From assembly GCA_003971905.1 (NCBI GenBank), contig RSEE01000064.1:360013-380012 (forward strand): DNA of 20,000 bases, given 5' to 3'. Both the position numbers and the translations under genes were made by a program. Positions 248 through 19,561 of the stretch are shown here, piece after piece. The DNA comes from Moniliella sp. 'wahieum' (lineage: Eukaryota). The notes below the pieces were generated by a model that saw only the letters and a program-made list of their open reading frames with translations, searched no databases and was not told the origin of the DNA. Numbering within the stretch: position 1 is the stretch's first letter; each line of letters opens with the position of its first letter.

Positions 248-2159
248 GTTGTGTCGTTTTTATGCAATGTCCGCGCTGAAGCTCGTTGGCGTACTGAGGG
301 CTTCGTCAGCGCCCTGGCTTCAACAAGGCTTGAGGCTCAGGCTTCAGGACGTAGATTGAATTTGATTCGTTTTTATGGACCGTAGACTTCCCATTGCCCA
401 AAGACGACGGCCATCTCCACCCTCTCTTTGCATCGAAACGCTCTTTCGTAGCGTCTTTTTTCTTCTCTTTGGGCTGGGATACTCCATTAAGGAATAAGAT
501 GCACGTCTGTTGGCTCATCAGGTTCAATGTATAGACCTGCATACTCGACAGAAAATTGGACCCGTTCGGGATGCTATACTATACCCACTGAGGTTCTTTC
601 CTTCGGTTCAAACACGTCTTTGGTCCCGACCGAGTCGTTATCAACGATACCGTGGAGATAGGAGCGACGATGCGTTCGGACCATCGATCGGGGTCCCAGG
701 TTCCTGCCTGGTAACCCGCCTAGACAACAGGCATGCAGCTCAAGTGGGTTACCTTTCTTCCTCCAGTCCCTCCGCTGCACCGTGAGGTTCGCACTAGTTA
801 GTAATAACAGCCCACCGTCAAAGAGACCTTGACCGACACTGCAGTCACTGGCAGTGTAGCCAAACTAAAAGTAGAGATACTGATTAGCTCATGATCAACC
901 CATAATAATACGCTCCGTGTCTACCAAGGGTCTACTTCCCTCTCTAGTTACCTTCGACTGCCTACTTCACCCACTGCACTATGCTCCCCCCCCAACCCCC
1001 CTTCTGCTCCACCCAGGAACTTGCATGGTACACTCGAACGGGACGGGGCTGTCTACGATTGGCTATAGACTAGGTTCTCGCCACCACCTACCAAGTTGGC
1101 TCGTACAGGCTCTCACGTGGTCAGTCACGGTATGACCGCAGCCGCTGTGTGGACGACCAACGGCGAGCGGGACGAACCCACCCCGGGCTGGACCTCTAAA
1201 GCAAAACCGACACTATAAACGGCGATAAAGAACTAACGGACAACATCTGGTTGGAGTCTGTCGGATACCATTGGCACCTCTACCAATCCATCTCCTCTGA
1301 CCGTCCCTAGTGGCGTACTAACAGACAAATGGCACCTCTCTCGTAGGCGATCTGGGGACAACATGGTCTTAGTTGGGTTCAACCAACGTCGAAGGTGGGT
1401 GGGAGGGTTGAAATTGCTAGGTGCAGCACGGACAGGCACAGTCGCTAGACCGAATCTTACCCCCAGGGGCAGAGGCGAGAGTGTGCCGGCCAAAGTGGAG
1501 AGAGGGTAGGAACATGAGCATGAGGAACTAACTACGGGCTACTATCATGCCAACCCGTGCAAGTATTACGCCCACACATACGCTACCGCCGGTGAACTGG
1601 GCGGGAAAGGTTGGAGGCAGTAGGTACTCATCTGACCGATCAACGTAACGGACGAACCAATTGATCGGGTCACTGTCATATGACAACCCTCTCTACCTGT
1701 GCTGTCTTCGCCGCGAAACAGGTCCCTGGGGCGCAATCTGAGAGGCAGGGCACGGCAAGAGTTGAGAAGGCGTAATGGGATCTGTGGGTGTGCGGATCAG
1801 CGATGACTTCTGAGCCCTCGGGGCCACTGGACTGTCTGCGCTGCTGAGCTGATCTGTACCTCTGCCGATTTGCTGTGGTACCCCTCGTGTGAGGTGTGGG
1901 CCGCGGGGAAGCTATAGTGCAGAGGTGAGGGGTCTCAATAGCATAAGACGATTCATATACACTGTTGCATTTTTCTGTGGCCGGTGGGTTGTTGGTTTTC
2001 TTTTTCTTCTTGAGCATTGCTAGCCTGGCAGGCAAGTGGAAGGGATGGGGGCACAGTTGCGTTTTGTTTCTACGCCCCCTTTAACACCCTTTCCCGTACA
2101 CATACACACCCCCACACCTCTGCGTGTCTGTCCCCATCTCATTCGCTTCTCCTCGGCGG

Positions 2160-3223
2160 TCAAACGATGCCCCATGCATCCTCGATCGCGCACGTAAAAC
2201 TGGAACCGGGAAACGAGGTCAGAATTAAGTATCGCAACTGACGAGCCTAGCCAGGAAGGGGGGGGGGAGTCAACGTACCTTGCCACACGCCACCGAGGCA
2301 CTAAGGGAGTACTCGGAGATGGAGATCTCTCATCAACAATCGTATCGGCAAAGTTATCCTGACCAGGCCATCGCGCCGACAAACACGGCGAGCGAGTGGT
2401 CCTTGGGGATGGTGGGGATGTACTGGGACAAGGTGGACGGAGCATTGTGACTGAGGGTGATTTTGTGCGTGTTGGGAGGCAAGTGGTCATTGATGGGTTC
2501 TTGATCACTGTCAGCAATCGTTCGTTGCCCTGAACGGAACGGATACTAAGTTTGAGCAACAGCTGAACCATCAGGCCAGAGAAGCGCTTGAACGTGCGCG
2601 GAATGCGCACACGCGGGTTCACTTCAATCAACACCCCCTTGGCCGTGTGGATGTAAACCTGCAGCAAACCAGCCTTGTTGAGCGGCGAGTCGAGCAAAGT
2701 CAAAAGACATTGGTGCGTAATGTCCGGCCTGGCATCCGCAATGTCCCGCCCCATCTTGGCCAGCACGCTCTGGTGGTCATCGCAGTTGAGCAACGCCAAC
2801 TTGCCCCCGGCACCATCCTTGGCGCGCTTCCCGCCGCGCCACCCGCAGGACCATAGCCACGGTAGGCACTGCCGCTGCTCGTGGGCATCTGGTACGTCTC
2901 GAGACACGCCTGCTCCAGGATGACAATCAGACGGGGAGTGTTGGCCTTTTCAGCCTCGGTCTTGGGCACCTTGGGCGCAGTAGGCACCAGCTGGGGCTCG
3001 GCACGCGCACGCTTCGTGCTGCCCGTCTCGTCGGGCTGCGAGGCAGGCGGCTTGGGCGGCAGGCCGTGCGGGCGGCGCGGGGTGAACCTTGGCGTCGGGC
3101 GGATGCGGGGCTCGGAGGGCTTGGCCGCCGCAGCAGGCGCAGCACTGACGTCGGGCACGCGGTAGCCGTCGAGGGCGGCGCGGCCATCTCGGCGTCGCTG
3201 GCAGAGTGCTCGCTGTCGGACAT
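2160..3223 (-). CDS. EMG1: 18S rRNA pseudouridine N1-methyltransferase Nep1/Emg1 (SPOUT family); several apparent frameshifts, one intron
   Basis: Motifs [67 protein letters not shown] and [15 protein letters not shown] are spread over ORFs 2927..3223, 2700..3158 and 2020..2907. ATG at 3223 is in a GCCGCCATG context. The last exon [15 protein letters not shown] ends at 2160. Confidence 0.93.
2200..2278 (-). other. Spliceosomal intron (79 nt) near the 3' end of EMG1
   Basis: Minus strand reads AAG|GTACGT ... CTGAC (branch) ... TTCCAG|. Splicing joins ACGK to the conserved terminal F-x-C-A-I-E-D-x-W, with one extra T in the T-run. Confidence 0.8.
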
Positions 3224-9519: not shown

Positions 9520-11044
9520 GTAGGCCTCCGTCCCGCACGGGGGGGTATGGGCTGGCGCAGCGCTGCCCGCCGCCGGCTGGGCACTGGGTGCTGCACTGCT
9601 GCGCCGGGCGCTGCCAAGCACGAGCCAAGCTGCCCGACGCACGGCGGCTGCCGGGGGTGGAGCACGCGGCAGGGCGCCACTGTCGGTGCCTCCGGCTGCT
9701 CGGCCTTTTGCGTGCGCGGCGGCTGGCTGGCGCCGTGGCCTGCCTGCCTGACAGCCGCCGTGGCGCGCAGGACGAGAGCCTCAGCGCATGGGCCGAGCTG
9801 GCAGGGTGCAGGGTGCAACCCGTGTGCAACCTCTGCCTCGGGTTTCCGTCCCCAGGCCCCACAAGTTGGCTGAGCAGCTGCGCGCTACGCTGCGCTCTTA
9901 AATCTTACCTAAGGCCTAAGGCCTGGCTGCCTGTCTCCGCTGCTCGCCCCCCGTGGAGAGACGGTAATTGGTTGTCTTCGGTTTTCAATTCGGCATCCTT
10001 ATCGATTATCCATCACCGTCCCCCCGCTCCCGCCATCGTCCCCTCGTGCTCCTTCCCACCGGCACCAACTATCGGCTACTGCGGTCGCACTCCAACTATC
10101 GAACCAGGCATGGACCAGCCCAAATATGCTTCGAGACAATGCGGGGGCAGGGGAGCGCAGGGGAGGGGAGGGATTGGCCCAATAGAGGTGAGGTGCGCGT
10201 GGTGGGGACGTTGAGGGAGGGGGCGACTTGCTGCAGAGCAAGATGAAGAATTCCATCCAAGCGCGGCAGGCAGGTACATACGCATGGACGCATGGACGCA
10301 TGGTACTCCAGGGCCGCTGTGGGGCACATGGGGAGAGAGCAAGGGAGGGGAGGGGGCAATGTCTAGCCCAAGCTCGGGTACAACTTCTTGGTTCGTGCCA
10401 CCACCTTCTTCACGTCCTGGCTGCGTGCGCGCGTGGTGACCAGCAACGCATCCGGAGTATCAATCACCACCACGTCGTCGACGCCGAGACAGGCTATTGG
10501 CCGTCCGGCGGCCGGGACGATGATGCCGCCCGCCTGGGACTCGGTGATGACCAACCGATGGTCGCCCAGCACCCTAGCCTCGCCCTTTTCCGCCGGGATG
10601 AGCCCTGCGAGCGAAGCAAAGTCGCCCACGTCGTCCCAGCCAAACGTAGCTGGCACCACGGCCACCTTGCCCAACTTGGCTGCCGGCTCAGCGACCGCAT
10701 GGTCAATCGCAATTTTTTCCAACTCGGGCCAGATCTGAGTAAAGGCAGCTTGCTTGGCTTCGGGGCCTTGGTCCCACGCCGCACCTACCTTGAGCAAGCC
10801 CTGGTGCAACTCGGGCTTGGTGTGCGCCAGCAAGTCCAGTAACACTTTGGCCTGCACCACAAACATGCCTCCGTTCCAGCGGTACTCGCCCGTCTTCAAA
10901 TACGCCGAAGCGGTCTTGGCATCGGGCTTTTCCACAAGTCAGCGACGACGCGCGCATTGGGCGCCGCCTCAACCCCGACCAAGGGCGCTCCCAGCTTAAT
11001 GTACCCGAACCCAGTGCTGGGGTAGGACGGTGCAATCCCAATGG

Positions 11045-11049
11045 TAACC
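11045..11049 (+). repeat. 5-bp target-site duplication TAACC (second copy at 16106-16110)
   Basis: TAACC immediately precedes the 5' LTR and immediately follows the 3' LTR. Confidence 0.97.
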
Positions 11050-11209
11050 TGTTGACATCCGTCCTAGGACCGCGCGGACCCTGAGTCACGTGAGTCAGCT
11101 TTCATTCCTTCCGAGCTCGCACCAGTCTTCTGGACGAGTCAGTCGCAGAAGCTTCTTAGTCCAATACGACGTTCAGTGCTCACATTCTGTGGTAGTAGCG
11201 AGGCCGACA
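11050..11209 (+). repeat. 5' LTR (160 bp)
   Basis: TGTTGACATCC...GAGGCCGACA, identical by eye to 15946-16105. Confidence 0.97.
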
Positions 11210-11263
11210 GAGTTACATCCTTATCTGCTCATCCCTGAGCTGGCCAAAACTACACCCACAACC

Positions 11264-12511
11264 ATGGGCGCCAACGCTAACACCGATCTCTCGGTCAGCG
11301 ACACCACAATGGTGAACAAGCGCGATTACTGGACACCAACCGGTCGCGATCCGCCACCGATTGGCACCGACAACGAGGAACTCATGATGCTTTGCGCCGA
11401 AGCGCACCTGTGGTTCAAGAAGACGAACGACATCGATGTCGTTAAAGAGAAGATCAACAGAGCTATACACGACAGAGCCGAGTGGCTTGGATGGAAGGAC
11501 GAACCTACGTCTATCACGACAAACTGGGTTCGACGGGCTACGAATTTTGTGGTGCAAAACATCCACCAAATGGAAACTCAACCCAACGCAACTTTGGGGG
11601 CACCTACAGGCGCAGCCTCGCGACCCGAGTACGACCTTTACAGATCACTACGCGAGTCTCCCACCAAGAATATCAAGTGGCCTGATCTGAACAAAGACCC
11701 GTCCGCCTACAGCGCTTGGGAAGACGAATTTCTCTTCGCGATAACAGATGCCCACCCCCACGCAAGCGACGTCGTCCAGAATGGTCGCAGCTCCCGCTAC
11801 TTCACCGAGGACCTCGACAGACGCTTGCACAACCTTCTTAGGGAAGCCATGCCGTCAACCCTCTTCCGGACGATCCGCACCCACCACGAAATATCATGCA
11901 CCCAGGACACGCTGAACATGCTGCGTCAGCGGTATGGATATACGCCTACCGCAAACAGAGGGCCTCTACTCATTCGCTACTTTTCGGCCGACCAAGGAAA
12001 CCGATCGGGTCGAGACTACCTCGACTACATGGAAGAGATCAGTGCAAGCCTGACGCGAGCGGGCATCCCACTTACGGAAGAGCAGGAACGCACTGGGATC
12101 CTACTCGGCTTACGCGACATGAGCATTCGCCAGCGTGAAGAGCGCTCGAGTCTAGACAAGTTACGGCAGGCCGTGATGGACATACCAGCCGCCACGTATC
12201 CCGGTGGAGAAAGGAAGAGAAACGGAGGCAAGCCGGTCAACGGAGGAACGCCTTGGACTCGACCCGACAGCGGGGGACGACCCACCAGCGGGGGAAAAAA
12301 CTCCAGCGGGGGCAAAGCCGGCGACGACAACCTCGCGGACACAAAGACCAAGGGGCAAGACCGCACCAACCAACCCTGGCGCAGCGCGACGTCTAATAAA
12401 CCTGTTGTCCCTCCGCGCAACCCAGGCCGAGCCAACGCTCACGTCGCTCAGAGAGCGAGCTCTCCCGAGTCTGAAGTGATTGACGTTGATGCGGGCACAG
12501 CTGACTACTAG
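11264..12511 (+). CDS. gag: Gag (415 aa)
   Basis: ATG in ACCATGG context 54 nt after the LTR. Helical capsid-like region (YSAWEDEFLFAI...LNMLRQRYG...YLDYMEEISASLTRAGIPLTEEQ...LLGL) and a basic G/K/R-rich tail. Ends at TAG 12509-12511. Confidence 0.85.
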   Translation: MGANANTDLSVSDTTMVNKRDYWTPTGRDPPPIGTDNEELMMLCAEAHLWFKKTNDIDVVKEKINRAIHDRAEWLGWKDEPTSITTNWVRRATNFVVQNIHQMETQPNATLGAPTGAASRPEYDLYRSLRESPTKNIKWPDLNKDPSAYSAWEDEFLFAITDAHPHASDVVQNGRSSRYFTEDLDRRLHNLLREAMPSTLFRTIRTHHEISCTQDTLNMLRQRYGYTPTANRGPLLIRYFSADQGNRSGRDYLDYMEEISASLTRAGIPLTEEQERTGILLGLRDMSIRQREERSSLDKLRQAVMDIPAATYPGGERKRNGGKPVNGGTPWTRPDSGGRPTSGGKNSSGGKAGDDNLADTKTKGQDRTNQPWRSATSNKPVVPPRNPGRANAHVAQRASSPESEVIDVDAGTADY

Positions 12512-15500
12512 GAACTCGGGGGCGAAATGCGAATCATCCGGGCATTATATGACAGTGGGGCATTCCCATCCATTTGGAAAGACAAATCCGTCTTCACATC
12601 CATGACCCCTTGCGACGACGAGATAGAGGTTGCTAACGGGACACATGTAAAGGCGGAAGGACGAGGCACGGCCACAATCCGTATCCGATGCTTAGGAGGA
12701 CACCAAATGGAGATAAAACTCCCCAACAGCCTATACATGCCCCGTTTCAGCCGAAATCTCGTCAGTGTAGCACACCTGTCGAACACCGGAATCGCATCAT
12801 ACTTCGCCCCACACCAGAAGGGTATCTGGCTTGGTAACCCAGGATCCACCCTACGAAAAGTAACCGGCAGTGACTATCAATTCACGATCTTACACAACCC
12901 GCGAACGCCACCCACACCCCTGCGGGCCATGGCGACCAAACCGATCAAACCGGCCGACCCACCCTCAACCCCAAACTCCCTCGCAGCATCCCTGGCCCTG
13001 GACCACGTCTCTAAAGCCCACAAACGCTGGAACCACGCAGCCATCGACCTCCTCCCCTGGCTTACACGATCGGAAACCGCAGGCCTCCGCGTCACAGCCA
13101 AGCATATCTCCCTCTGTCGTTCAGAGTGGGATTGCCCAACATGCGCGGTGGCACTAGCGACAGCATCGCCCCATCCGAGCCGGGACCGCCTCCGATCCAA
13201 AAGACCTTTCGAGGTCCTCCACGTCGACGTAGTAGACCTCCCCCGGGTAACCGGCATGGGGCACGGATACGCCCTCGTCGCCGTTGATGACTTCACGCGG
13301 TACGTCTTCACCACAGCGATCCCGACAAAGGGCGCTGCAACGAAGGAACTGCGGAACCTCATATTGCGGGAGCAACGCTACGGCCCGGACAGACTGCTGC
13401 GGACTTTGCGCACGGACAACGCCCCCGAATTGACAAGCGCACTGCAACCTTTTCTGGACGAGCAAGGCATCACGTCAGAACGGACAATCCCGGGGCAGAG
13501 TGCTAGCAACGGTGTGGCTGAGCGTGCCATCCGAACCATAACGACTCGTGCAAGGCAGTTGCTCTTGGGTACAGGTCTTCCGACGTCGGACTGGTGGGAA
13601 CACAGCCTCCACGCTGCGTGCTTCACCCAAAACCAAATGCCACTCAAAACATCCGGGGAAGACAACAAATCGCGATTTGAGCGATACAAAGGCCACGCAT
13701 ACTCGTTACCGATGCAACCCTTTGGCCGCGTTGCATACCTCCATCTGCCCGAGTCACGCCGCGAGCACAAGCTCAGCGGCGGGCAGAGGAAGGTATGCTG
13801 GTAGGATACCACCATCAGCGCGGATCAAAGGGATGGCTCTTCGCCACATACCAACCATCCCTGGGTACCTTCACCTACCGCTGGTCGAAACCGTACAAAT
13901 GGGGCAACGCCATCTACCCCCATCTCCACCCCGACCACTTCCCACCCGACATCTCCAAATCACCTCAAATTAAAATCGACAGTGAAAAAGACGCTAACCC
14001 TACTCCGCCAGCCGCGGCAGCACCCATGCCCCGAACCGCCGCCACACCCCAGACACCCGCTCCCACCACCCCCCCTCCGCGCCGCTACCCCCTCCGCCAG
14101 CGCACCACCCGCACCTCCCTCGACCTGCACACACTCCCAATCGCTGACGACCCCACCGACACGACCTACCATGCTCGTGCTGCAGCCGCCACGCCCCACT
14201 GCGCCGCACCAGAGATCGGCATCGCCCGCCCCCTACCTGACACATCCGCCCCCCCGTTTGCCGACACAGTTCAACCTCCCGAATACGCCGCCATGACTGC
14301 TCTCAGCGCACCCATCCACCCGGACACGGTTCAGCTCACCAAGGATGGCGTACCCCTCGCTCCCAAGACGCTCAAGGGTCTCGAGACTCACCCCTCCTTT
14401 GCCATGGTCAAGCAGGCTATGGCCGACGAGGTGGCCACACTCGCGCGATACGGCACCTACGAGGCTACGTACCCACCACCGGGTGCACAAATCCTCATAG
14501 GACTATGGCGCATCACCACAAAGACGGACGCCGAGGGCCGGTTCCTGCGCCACCGCGCGCGCTTTGTCGCGGGCGGACACCAACAATCGGCCGAGACTTG
14601 GGGCCAGACGTTCGCACCATCGGTGCGCACACCTGCCATCCTGACCCTCGTCGTGCTGGCCGAGAAGTATAAGTTTGGCCTCTTCTCGGCGGACGTCAAT
14701 GCAGCGTACCTGAACGCCCCCCTCGAAGAAGCAGTCTACATCCGCCCACCCCCCTACTTCCCCGAAGCGGGTGGTCGCGTGTGGCGTCTCAAGAAGAGTC
14801 TATACGGGCTACATCAGAGCGGAGCAAACTGGGCACGATACATCCGGAACCTGCTGCGTGACAAGCTCGGCTTCACGCAAAGCTTGACCGAGCCCTGCTT
14901 GTTCGTGCGCGCTGCACCACCGGGTGAGCAGATCCTCCTGGCGGTCCACACCGACGATCTGCTCCTCGCATGCAAGTCACACCAAAAGTACGAGGAGTTT
15001 ATGGCCGAGATAAACACACACATTGATGTTCGTGGTAACGGTCCCCTTCACTACCACCTGGGATGCCAATACGATCGGATCGGTGGGGAGCTGTACCTGA
15101 GCCAACCAAAGTTCATCGAGGAAGTGGTGGCAAAGCACCACATCAAAGCCCCGTGGATCCGGACTCTCCCACATCCCGTACGGATGATACCGCCCCGTGC
15201 CGACCCTGAACCCCCATCCCTCCCAGCCTTGCGCAAGGCATATCAGGGGAAGATCGGATCGGGACTGTGGGCTGCACGAATGGGCCGGCCTGACTCCCTC
15301 TTCGCTATCACGGCCCTCAGCAGAGCCGCTGCCGACCCATCGCAGCAGCATCATCAAGCAGTCGATGACTTCCTTCGCTACCTGTACCATACTCGAGGAA
15401 AGGGCCTGAGGTTGACCCCAACATCAGATGCACCGGCCATTGCGCTGTATACAGATTCCGACTTGGCGGGAGATCCCATCCAGGCACGCTCCACATCTGG

Positions 15501-15951
15501 ATGCCTACTGATGGTGTACGGTGTGCCGGTGTCGTGGCGATCCATTCTTCAGCCGAAGAGCGTTACCAGTACCGCCGCCGCCGAATATACGGCAGGATAT
15601 GATGGACTGGTTGACGCCAACTATGTCAAGAACATCATGATCGAGCTTGGGGCCATCGGCGAGGGTACACCCATTCATTGGTATTGCGACAATAAGTCTG
15701 TCGTCGATCTCGCCCACAAATTTGGCAGCACCGGCAAGCTCCGAGAGCTGAAGATCCGGTACCACAATGTACGGCAACACGTGGACTCGGGCGAGGCCAT
15801 ACTTGTACACATCCCCGGCGAAAGGAACCCAGCGGACGTCCTCACCAAGCCTCTCGGCCGTCCCGCCCTGACAAGCCATCTTGCTCAACTCCGCGTCGAG
15901 GAGATGGATCCAGTCCACATGACTGGGCCCTCCGGTCAGCGGGGGTGTTGA
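12512..15951 (+). CDS. pol: Pol polyprotein (protease, integrase, reverse transcriptase, RNase H); one apparent 1-nt deletion near 13780
   Basis: PR YDSGA and SRNLVSV; IN HKRWNH..CPTC, LHVD, RTDN, NGVAER; RT RARFVAGG, DVNAAYL, LKKSLYGLHQSG, HTDD; RH YTDSD, AAEY, CDN, NPADVLTK. Stop TGA at 15949-15951 lies inside the 3' LTR. First ATG is at 12527. Confidence 0.95.
15939..15945 (+). other. Short polypurine tract GCGGGGG abutting the 3' LTR
   Basis: G-run directly 5' of TGTTG, the expected plus-strand priming position. Confidence 0.7.
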
Positions 15952-16105
15952 CATCCGTCCTAGGACCGCGCGGACCCTGAGTCACGTGAGTCAGCTTTCA
16001 TTCCTTCCGAGCTCGCACCAGTCTTCTGGACGAGTCAGTCGCAGAAGCTTCTTAGTCCAATACGACGTTCAGTGCTCACATTCTGTGGTAGTAGCGAGGC
16101 CGACA
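15946..16105 (+). repeat. 3' LTR (160 bp)
   Basis: Direct repeat of 11050-11209, followed by TAACC. Confidence 0.97.
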
Positions 16106-17960
16106 TAACCAAGTAGCCTTGTTGAGCCACCGCTGTCGCTTCGCGCACAGCCGACTCAAACGCATCCCGACCACTCACAATGTGGTCCGCTGCAAAGCTC
16201 CCAACACAGCGTCGGATCGCGGTGGTAGAGCACGGCAGCGGCCAGACCAATGGCCGCCATGCTTTCTTTGGGCGAAGGTTCGGTGAGTAAGTTCTTCGGG
16301 TCCAAGTCGGGCAATTGATGGGCCACGGCAGGCGCATGCGCTGCGCCCGTCACAATCATCATCCGACTCGGACCGGCTAGGGGCAACGACGGTCCCACGT
16401 GCCTTGCAACAACGTCCGTCCGGCCCCGGTCAGGTCCAAGAGAAACTTGGGGTAACTTTCACGGCTCAAGGGCCACAGACGCGTACCTGCCCCACCGGCG
16501 GGAACGACGCACCACAAGTTGAGCGTGGGCGAGGTGGCGAGCAGCGGCGCAGGTTGGCTCAGCGTCGTAGGTAGTGACAGGTGCGGCGCCATCAGGTCCG
16601 CAACGCCGACCGAGTGGGAGCGCGGCAAGCCCGGGCGCACCAACGGGACGCCGAGCGGCGAGCCAGGCACAGGTCCCGCACCCAGCGCGGCGCTAAAAAG
16701 GGAGACTGCGATTGGTCTCCTCGAGATGGTCCATACGGCTGTGCAAGCCGGCGACTTGGGTTTGCAGGTTCTGCAGGCCAGCCAGGATGAGCGCGAGCGG
16801 GTCCTGCTCGGCTGGACTGGAGCCATTGGCGGGGGACGCAGACGGCATGGAGGGCAGCTACGCTGGTTGGTGGTAGGGAGGTGGGGCGAGCAAGGCGAGC
16901 AAGGCGGGGGGGGCGAGAGGGGAGAGGGCGAAACGCAAGAAGAAAACGCGCGCCGAAGGCTGGGACCACAGGACCAAACGGGACAAGTGCCCGTGTGGGA
17001 TGGCGGCGAAGAAGGGGAGGCGGAGGAAGGCAGGGTGCAAGGGGCATCGACACGCTGGCGCGGCACTTGGCCTGCTCCACGTTTCACCTGCACCGCGCCG
17101 CGCAGTGCGCACCGCACGGGGGCTGTGTGTGCGTGCCCAGGAACGCGCTGGGCGCCGCTGGTCGACACACTGCGCTGGTGCCACGGCAGCCCTGCTGCGG
17201 CACGGGCACGGCGTGGCACAGCATGGCACCACAGCACAATGCAACGCTTAACCCAAGAACCAGTACCTCGCGCTCGCACTCGTGCTCGCGCAGCGGCGCA
17301 GCTGGCGGGGCTGCGCGCTCCAAGTTGGCCCGGCTGGTAACCGCCTCTTTGTCCTCTGCAAGGCAACGTGGGCTTAACGTTCCCTTCGACTGCTGAAAAT
17401 GTACCCGCAAGGTATGAACTCCAAGATGAGCCCCAGTAGCGGGGGAGGGGGTCAAACTCTTGACGCGCTTCGAAATAGTTGAAAGTGATTGATGCTGAGG
17501 GAGTGCTAGAGTGCGTGGACTGACGGTATATGTTGGCCCTCTACGGTCCCGTACGTAGCGCTAGGCACTACCTTATTGTCATCCCCCCATTTTTGACCTC
17601 CGGGAGCCTATATGCTTAGACAGCGGTTCTTTTGGGACCCATATTTCCTCCCGGTGTGGTACGTGCATGAGAAGCGCATATCAGACCTCGAGACCACAGC
17701 TTCGTCTTCGATTAAATTATTCCATGCCCAACTTCTTGGGTTCTCATCCAGTCGTACAAGGCACACTACATGGGGGCAAAAAGCGCGGCAATAACAAACC
17801 AGAGACGCGTGTCGGAGCGATGTCTCTATTACGCCATCCTTCACCCCTGATATGTGTTGCACATCTGTGGCATCGCCTCCATCAGGTAATTGATCTCGTA
17901 AATCATATTAATGAACTCCCGGACTCATAATCTGCTCGGTGGTTCCCTCGGCCACAGAAG

Positions 17961-17992: not shown

Positions 17993-19561
17993 TGTCAGAC
18001 TCACGCCGTGCTAGGGGCCCCTTGGCCACTAGACCCGTATGGGCACTATGGCGTGATTCTTATCAGTTGGGAGATCCTGTGTCCACCTCTCGACTGTGCC
18101 CCCTTCCTGAGGAGGTACATATACCTCCTCTGCGTCCATAGATGTATGCAATCCATCTGCGCCCTTCCCCCATCTCCGTCTCCTGTCAGGTTAGATCCCA
18201 CTCAGCCTTCCAGGCTCGCGAGCCCCCGGCGGACATCTCTCCTCGGCCTCGGCCGCCCTCCTCCCCGCCCCCGATGTCCGCCCGTCCGCACGGCACACTG
18301 CCGCCGTGCGCTGACTTCTACCAGGACGCCTTGCAGGTCGGCGTCAGGCCCCTCACCCCCCCCCCCTGTGGCCGCTGTCCCCCACGCGGACCCCCTCCCC
18401 GCCACGGCGCGTGAGCCGGCCCCTTCCGTTCCGGAATCCCCTACCCCTGGCCTGGCCGTGACCGACGCTCGCGCCCTCGTCACGGCCACTATTCAGGCCC
18501 TCCTCCCCTACCTCAACTTCCCCGCCCACCCCACCCCTGCTGCCCGCCGCTCCGCCACTCCCCCCTGCCCCACCACGAGGCAACCCCCGCGGACGCCGCC
18601 TTCTCCGGCAGCATTCTACCCCATTCCTCCCGGACGTCATTGCCCCCAACACTGCCGCCGCCATTGCTGTTCCCTCTCCCGGTCCAAGCACGCCGCCGCT
18701 GTTGGCCTCGCTCACGTCCTCCCTTACGGTCCGCCCCTTACTGCCCCCTTCATAGGGCATGTCCCGCGGACGCTGCCAGCTCCGGCAGCCCCTCTTCTCC
18801 CCCATTTTCCCCCCAAGTCGCGCCTCGGGATTTCGTTTCCCCTGCCGTTCATCTCGGCCACCTCGCGCGTTCCCCAAGTAAGCCACTGACGTCTTCGGTA
18901 GGCACCTCGTGCCACTCCTCCCCCCTATTACCAAGGCGCAAAATTGCTTCGCCCCTTTGCCCCGCAAGCCCGCTGACCCGCTCGGTCGCTGCCCTGCTGT
19001 TCGGGACGCCATTGTTGCACGCGTCAAGCTATGGCATGAACGTGCCATGCATCTTCCCGTTCACAAGCTTCCGGGGCTCACCGCGGCCCTCTCACCCCCT
19101 GAGCGAGTTACGCACGATGACGTGCTCGCCGTGAAGGCCGCTGGCTGGCACTGCCCGGCGTGTGACTTAGTTCCCTCTGAACCAATGCCACCCTTGCCTC
19201 AGCTGGGCCTGCAACAGCCATTTCCCTTGCACACGCTTGCTGCTGACGTGTTCGACGACTTCGGCACCTCTCCCAGCGCAACGTGTGCTCTCATCGTCCA
19301 AGACCATGACTCGCGTTTCATCTGGTCTATCTCCCTCAAGTCCAAGACAGACGCCGCTGATGCACTGCAAGCCCACATTGAGTCTCTCGAGCAGCAATTC
19401 TCTTACAAGGGCATGCCCACCCACCCATTCAGGGTTGAGACAACTTTTGACTGGAAGACCACGGGAGTGAGTTAGTTTGAGTAGCCCAAGGCTGTAGCTA
19501 TCCACCCCTACCACTCTCACTGATGCGACGCCTGGTCTTGGTGTGTCGGGGGGTGTGTCAG
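17993..19561 (+). mobile_element. Truncated or internally deleted copia-derived element of a different family (candidate LTR 17993-18188; ORF about 18274-19475 with partial integrase)
   Basis: ORF 18909..19475 has WHERAMH...CPAC (HHCC) then LHTLAADVF...LIVQDHDSRFIWSISLKSK (integrase core N-half) but no later DN/E motifs. Upstream is a TGTCAG...CTGTCA segment followed by PBS-like GGTTAGATCCC. Outer boundaries are inferred. Confidence 0.6.

Follow-up and report, generated by a model that had tools for sequence, protein, structure and literature searches.

The 20,000-nucleotide stretch of Moniliella sp. 'wahieum' DNA analysed here (contig RSEE01000064.1, positions 360,013 to 380,012 of the forward strand; hereafter the window, in whose numbering all positions are given) carries a Ty1/copia long terminal repeat (LTR) retrotransposon of 5,056 bp at 11050-16105, as delimited by the LTR ends read from the sequence. 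All of its features lie on the + strand. The 5' LTR (11050-11209, TGTTGACA...GGCCGACA, direct repeat family D1) and the 3' LTR (15946-16105) are each 160 nt long, 100% identical and have TG..CA ends, and both are flanked by the 5-bp target duplication TAACC, on the left at 11045-11049 and in the same letters on the right at 16106-16110. Between the LTRs lie a gag open reading frame (ORF) of 415 codons counted from its first ATG (11264-12508), a single in-frame TAG codon (12509-12511) and a pol region in two parts, of which the first (12512-13777) stays in the gag frame and encodes the protease and the integrase core, and the second (13783-15951) encodes the integrase end, the reverse transcriptase (RT) and RNase H. 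Pfam locates Pol_BBD, the copia protease barrel, at residues 13-93 of ORF 12512..13804 (E 4.2e-12), rve, the integrase core, at residues 230-329 of the same ORF, and RVT_2 in ORF 13681..15951 (E 4.1e-37), giving the order protease, integrase, copia-type RT. The LTRs, the target duplication and this domain order all agree with the copia identity that had been claimed in an earlier annotation of this DNA (the original prediction) and place the element in Ty1/copia (Pseudoviridae). An exhaustive protein search with 14,983 matches found copia polyproteins matching the element's protein by the thousands, and the C-terminal part of pol reads ...NPADVLTKPL..., to be compared with the ADxxTK motif known from PMC5445492.

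The label gag for the first ORF follows from its position and from language-model look-alikes among Ty/copia Gag proteins (Ty Gag, TYA, at 0.90; Retrotran_gag_2 at 0.88), which serve as leads only. This ORF has no CCHC knuckle, its tail is rich in Gly, Arg and Lys, no Pfam family was found for it, and word-index protein searches returned no sequence relatives.

The junction of gag and pol is the subject of this analysis. Read from stop to stop, ORFs 11048..12511 and 12512..13804 lie in one and the same frame, and the TAG, in the context UAC-UAG-GAACUC, is the sole stop between them, just as the original prediction had quoted it. One frame with one stop immediately before the protease is the gag-stop-pol arrangement of the elements Tca2 and VdLTRE5. 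The catalytic motif DSG, earlier placed roughly 13 codons past the TAG, is encoded by GAC AGT GGG at 12551-12559, its D being the 14th codon after the stop. Upstream of the stop, GTGATT occupies 12476-12481; downstream, the first in-frame ATG lies at 12527-12529, 8 codons before the catalytic Asp. The protease motif at 12551-12574 reads DSGAFPS, compared with the usual copia DSGA(S/T)xH. That pol continues in the gag frame after the TAG holds up to about position 13775. What had been overlooked is a frame slip of one base at 13775-13785, in the C-terminal part of the integrase, where the frame-2 reading ends ...HKLSGGQRKVCW* and the frame-1 reading goes on ...RAEEGMLVGY. The predicted protein P0003, which is the sole close relative of the element (63-64% protein identity across integrase, RT and RNase H), is unbroken at this position (HKLSPRAVEAMLVGY), and the slip is thus a lesion or an assembly error rather than a recoding site. 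It is probably an assembly indel near 13780, since host genes in the window have several. Programmed -1 frameshifting at the slip was rejected, as P0003 is continuous there and a slippery heptamer was not seen.

We propose that the TAG is the real gag terminator of an active Ty1/copia family and not damage to this copy, an explanation to which, taken as a whole, we give a probability of about 0.5. Most ribosomes would stop at the TAG and yield Gag, while a small fraction would pass the UAG in frame, most likely through decoding by a near-cognate tRNA. Passage would give rise to a Gag-Pol fusion that would be cut into protease, integrase and RT/RNase H. The anatomy of the element, intact but for the one slip, and its recent insertion are shown directly and favour the proposal; the lack of local signals is shown as well, whereas inheritance of the stop and its bypass by read-through are inferred. 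Two lines of indirect evidence, the position of the stop and the existence of pol-only relatives, make it plausible that the stop is functional, as the original prediction held, and we consider it likely that the TAG is a genuine inherited trait of the family. With respect to position, 499 single-base changes would create a stop in the 1,560 codons; 10 of these (2.0%) fall within 12470-12550 and 14 (2.8%) within 12401-12550. A random nonsense change exactly at the linker between Gag and protease is therefore unlikely a priori.

With respect to relatives, a protease alignment was present in 118 of 152 matches, and most of the 118 are fusions of gag with pol in which DSG first comes at residue 120-560 or beyond. 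For a tree of the protease-integrase (PR-IN) region, we hand-picked 61 relatives in which DSG could be located and was followed by at least 330 residues, dropping most near-duplicates of one abundant group. In this tree of 62 rows the element groups with the predicted proteins P0010 and P0118, with a value of 94 in the Shimodaira-Hasegawa-like approximate likelihood ratio test (SH-aLRT), and the same three sequences group again in a tree of 39 rows (38 relatives; bootstrap/SH-aLRT 86/94). Both P0010 and P0118 are pol-only, their initial Met lying 8 residues (P0010) and 6 residues (P0118) ahead of DSG; proteins that start 21 residues or fewer from DSG make up 7 of the 61 relatives in the larger tree. 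P0010 is encoded on contigs of 4.6-4.7 kb, which leaves room for a separate gag. The protease variant DSG-x-(H/Y)-PS is common to these two nearest pol-only relatives.

A structural model of the protease is a third indirect line in favour of an inherited stop and also bears on how Pol is made. We modelled the residues encoded by 12386-12900 with AF2, reading the TAG as Gln and using a 40-row alignment, so that the stop is residue 42 and the Met of ATG 12527 is residue 48. The mean predicted local distance difference test score (pLDDT) is 72.9, with values above 89 for residues 51-140 and below 50 for residues 14-44. The best Foldseek match of the model is the protease of xenotropic murine leukaemia virus-related virus (XMRV; E 5e-4), and VIA Z values of 8.6-7.2 were obtained for the Ddi1 RVP domain and the XMRV and human immunodeficiency virus type 1 (HIV-1) proteases. 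In the superposition, residues 10-99 (or 4-99) of HIV-1 protease pair with residues 37-142 (or 33-142) of the model, and for XMRV protease and Ddi1 RVP the match begins at model residues 34-38; solved retropepsins thus begin to superpose 5-9 residues upstream of the stop. In retropepsins the N-terminal strand belongs to the dimer interface. According to the model, the first core strands of the protease seem to straddle the stop, and if they are coded on both of its sides, Pol would have to be made as a fusion.

How ribosomes would pass the stop is less evident. Translational read-through is the most likely mechanism, and that the stop is bypassed in this way is, overall, a tentative proposition that falls just short of even. 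The UAG is followed by G, as in signals of the murine leukaemia virus (MuLV, type III) kind, but the stable stem-loop or pseudoknot that such signals have about 8 nt downstream is missing from the predictions. The fold of 12500-12640 reaches -32.6 kcal/mol, whereas its shuffles reach -36.8 +/- 4.0 and 171 of 200 are at least as stable; in six further windows z ranges from +0.13 to +1.95 against dinucleotide shuffles. The AAUGC/GCAUU pairing that the original prediction had invoked as an aid to read-through thus adds no stability beyond that of shuffles, and its call for a downstream pseudoknot fared no better. Since a canonical local read-through signal is absent, the determinant of efficiency would be either weak basal leakiness or a signal located elsewhere, remote or host-specific, as in Tca2. 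Reassignment of the stop codon was also considered and dropped: TGA closes pol, TAG closes the dead-end frame, and nothing in this one window spoke in its favour.

Several observations weigh against the proposal that the TAG is an inherited terminator passed by read-through. No downstream RNA structure exceeds shuffles in any of the seven windows folded (z +0.1 to +1.9), 48% of 300 shuffles do as well as the best candidate of a crude scan for H-type pseudoknots, and Rfam gave no match in the element. Known read-through rules rate the context of the stop as poor. The CARYYA context (of the tobacco mosaic virus, TMV, type) and the UGA-CU context, motifs taken from parts of PMC3441728 and PMC4207609, are both absent, the six bases past the UAG being GAACUC, and the stop is preceded by AC rather than AA. 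In Ustilago maydis, where the UGA-CU motif works, read-through fell when UGA was replaced by UAG or UAA, according to passages of PMC4207609. The clade of P0010 and P0118 has long branches and moderate support, its bootstrap not being fully settled; the Met starts of these proteins are forced by gene callers, and their genes may carry a frameshift instead of a stop. The superposition across the stop carries little weight, because the model has pLDDT below 50 upstream of residue 45. With another reading-frame defect at 13775-13785, this copy cannot be called intact with certainty.

The search for other copies adds to these points. When three runs of one study were compared, five contigs of run X1, a public metagenome, matched the element and none from runs X2 or X3 did, and none of the five spans 12402-12570; the compared contigs therefore hold no second copy of the junction, and inheritance of the TAG is not shown by them. 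Run X1 also contains a 5,089-nt contig of depth 30 that encodes P0003, beside the low-depth contigs nearly identical to the element. P0003 begins in the integrase, and the searches found no protein spanning its protease or gag; by arithmetic, about 2 kb of the contig lie upstream of P0003, room for a protease and a gag. P0003 alone exceeds about 35% identity in the exhaustive protein search, and it is the sole close match among the 21 returned for a PR-IN query. No match was obtained with a junction query in a word-index protein search or with a junction/protease query against PDB sequences, and scans of metagenome, prokaryote genome and viral contigs gave no DNA relatives of the element.

It is possible, though unlikely, that the TAG is a private defect, such that the family has a single gag-pol ORF and the nonsense codon arose in this copy or its immediate parent RNA. 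Such a copy could have been mobilised in trans, could have mutated after insertion, or could owe its stop to an assembly error at this base. A single ORF is indeed the rule among relatives, as seen in most of the 118 protease-aligned matches with their 120-560 or more residues before DSG, and the second reading-frame defect of this copy speaks for damage as well. Identity over 160-bp LTRs is compatible with up to about 1% divergence. The assembly, moreover, is demonstrably error-prone in the neighbouring genes. The EMG1/NEP1 gene (minus strand, window 2270-2570) shows by eye three frame breaks within about 190 nt, and its domain is split over two frames, with profile positions 22-136 in ORF 2020..2949 and 119-167 in ORF 2354..2545. 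The ManC-like gene around the element has at least three frame changes, likewise by eye, at 10890-10940 and 16150-16400. Repeated one-base breaks of this kind, with protein similarity running on uninterrupted, fit an indel-prone assembly of unique DNA. However, indels rather than substitutions are the errors seen there, and the several frame breaks of the host genes in the window contrast with a single one along about 4.7 kb of the element. Because the element is far cleaner than the surrounding unique DNA, a base-call error at the TAG is unlikely; we can only guess that multi-copy sequence was better polished. A private defect would also have had to land on a linker that would receive 2-3% of stop-creating substitutions, and the pol-only form of the nearest protease-bearing relatives speaks against it as well.

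If the TAG is instead an inherited terminator, Pol could still be translated alone from the ATG at 12527, either by reinitiation after termination, as the original prediction had suggested, or from a sub-genomic transcript made by a weak internal promoter. We regard this as improbable. The ATG lies 15 nt past the stop and has a purine at -3, and P0010 likewise starts with a Met 8 residues before DSG, but an in-frame ATG occurs within the next 10 codons at 161 of 835 codon positions (19%), which is the level expected by chance, and the Met at the start of a predicted protein reflects what gene callers require. A minor promoter at the junction has been described for Tca2; in the same passages of PMC2194720, this promoter does not account for Pol. 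A protease begun at this ATG would have about 8 residues ahead of the catalytic Asp, whereas retropepsins superpose from upstream of the stop, and by the model it would lose the parts matching HIV-1 protease residues 4-17 in the superposition, among them the dimer-interface strand. A free Pol would, in addition, need a separate route into particles.

The least probable alternative is that splicing takes 36 nt out of a minority of transcripts as an in-frame intron (GTGATT...CTGAC...TAG, 12476-12511) and so removes the stop. The candidate has GT and AG ends, a branch-like CTGAC and a length divisible by three, but its acceptor comes free with any stop ending in AG, an in-frame GT lies 30-60 nt upstream of 5 of the 12 in-frame YAG codons of gag-pol, and its 5' site departs from GTRNGT with T at +5 where G is expected. 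The 4,736-nt interior holds 3 occurrences of the pattern GT..CTRAY..YAG, 0 of them with a GTRNGT donor, whereas shuffles hold 10.4 +/- 5.4, and usual fungal introns are longer. The authors of the Tca2 work likewise judged splicing of the stop unlikely in the relevant part of PMC2194720.

The layout of a copia element with gag, a stop and pol in one frame is already known and rare, with Tca2 and VdLTRE5 as fungal examples, a precedent that favours the proposal. What distinguishes the Moniliella element is a UAG in a copia element without a local signal, and by the features tested it belongs to neither the MuLV-type nor the TMV-type class. The UGA element Tca2 (pCal) of Candida albicans, an apt comparison in the original prediction, is an active member of copia whose gag and pol likewise share a frame, with one stop just before the protease, and no portable local read-through signal is known for it either (PMC2194720, PMC4139406). 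According to PMC2194720, Pol is made from full-length gag-UGA-pol RNA, and the junction (300 nt around the stop) gave 0.3% read-through in Saccharomyces cerevisiae and directed no read-through in the reporter. The two elements are likened by layout alone. Tca2 is an element of 6,426 bp with 280-bp LTRs in an ascomycete yeast, and it has UGA, a purine-rich spacer and a potential pseudoknot where the Moniliella element, with its 5,056 bp and 160-bp LTRs, has UAG-G and no predicted structure. VdLTRE5 of Verticillium dahliae, as presented in parts of PMC3441728, is a Ty1/copia element with an in-frame stop between gag and pol, very short LTRs (159 bp) and no CARYYA motif; its stop is UGA and its host an ascomycete, and here too the likeness is one of layout alone.

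The resemblance to the gag-UAG-pol junction of MuLV and XMRV lies in the in-frame UAG followed by G and in the XMRV protease being among the best structural matches of the model. In gammaretroviruses the stop is placed a few residues into the protease, and the position suggested by the model here, within the N-terminal part of the protease, is similar. MuLV, which belongs to another retroelement superfamily, needs an 8-nt spacer and a pseudoknot, and none is predicted in the Moniliella element. Among fungal LTR elements, Tj1, Tcry1 and Tosmo1-3 of fission yeasts also have an in-frame gag stop, and transposition of Tj1 requires it, as stated in sections of PMC10085805; these are Ty3/Gypsy elements with a conserved GAA-UGA-CU that fits read-through rules, whereas UAC-UAG-GA does not. 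Programmed read-through is also used by smut fungi in host genes of U. maydis (passages of PMC4207609), where the motif is UGA-CU(A), which is absent from the element.

It is conceivable, if speculative and rather improbable, that the element represents a small clade of compact copia elements of fungi, with short LTRs and the protease motif DSG-A/T-F/Y/H-PS, in which the gag UAG lies inside the coding sequence of the protease N-terminal strands and would be passed, in the absence of any known local signal, by an element-specific device. One example would be tRNA-Tyr acting as the suppressor, with UAC as the codon ahead of the stop, and this would couple the choice of primer to suppression. The putative primer-binding site (11210-11225) is placed solely by its position abutting the 5' LTR, and its complement has GTA positioned like the anticodon of a half-tRNA primer; no tRNA gene was found within the window for comparison. 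At the other end of the element, a putative polypurine tract (GGTCAGCGGGGG, 15934-15945) is likewise inferred from position, and the TGA stop of pol falls within the first bases of the 3' LTR. The C-terminus of pol, ...SGQRGC, runs into the start of this LTR, and the pol of P0003 has the same ending.

The element interrupts a minus-strand ManC-like coding sequence (window 10363-11049 and 16106-16520), which we take to be of the mannose-1-phosphate guanylyltransferase type (NTP_transferase plus ManC_GMP beta-helix), and splits it between consecutive residues, ...QQGYLV and TIGIAPS.... In Pfam, NTP_transferase positions 4-35 lie upstream (about 16.4 kb) and positions 160-236, together with the ManC beta-helix, downstream (10.9-10.4 kb), all on the minus strand. 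The flank ending ...AVAQQGYLV aligns weakly (E 1) to residues 112-139 of a solved ManC-type enzyme and the flank starting TIGIAPSYPSTGFGYI, again weakly (E 0.035), to residues 137-165 of another. The host reading frame is continuous across the duplicated GGTTA. The insertion is clean, presumably recent and the work of an active family. Identical LTRs and a perfect target duplication bear out the earlier description of the element as young, with the proviso that LTRs of 160 bp give little resolution. Further along the window, at 18882-19475 on the + strand, a degenerate integrase fragment with an HHCC-like WHER...H...CPAC in a proline-rich, GC-rich setting shares 28% identity with the integrase of the element over 161 residues and is probably a remnant of another LTR retrotransposon.

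The finding points to no mechanism of a new kind. How Pol is produced in copia elements with a gag stop has been a question since the Tca2 work of 2007, in which the junction alone failed to direct read-through. An element of the same layout that looks unrelated and seems to be active, yet has a UAG and no local signal, would be a useful second system for comparison, and its value would be greater in a fungal group that already has read-through reporters. It also carries a warning for annotation, as one stop should not mark such elements as dead.

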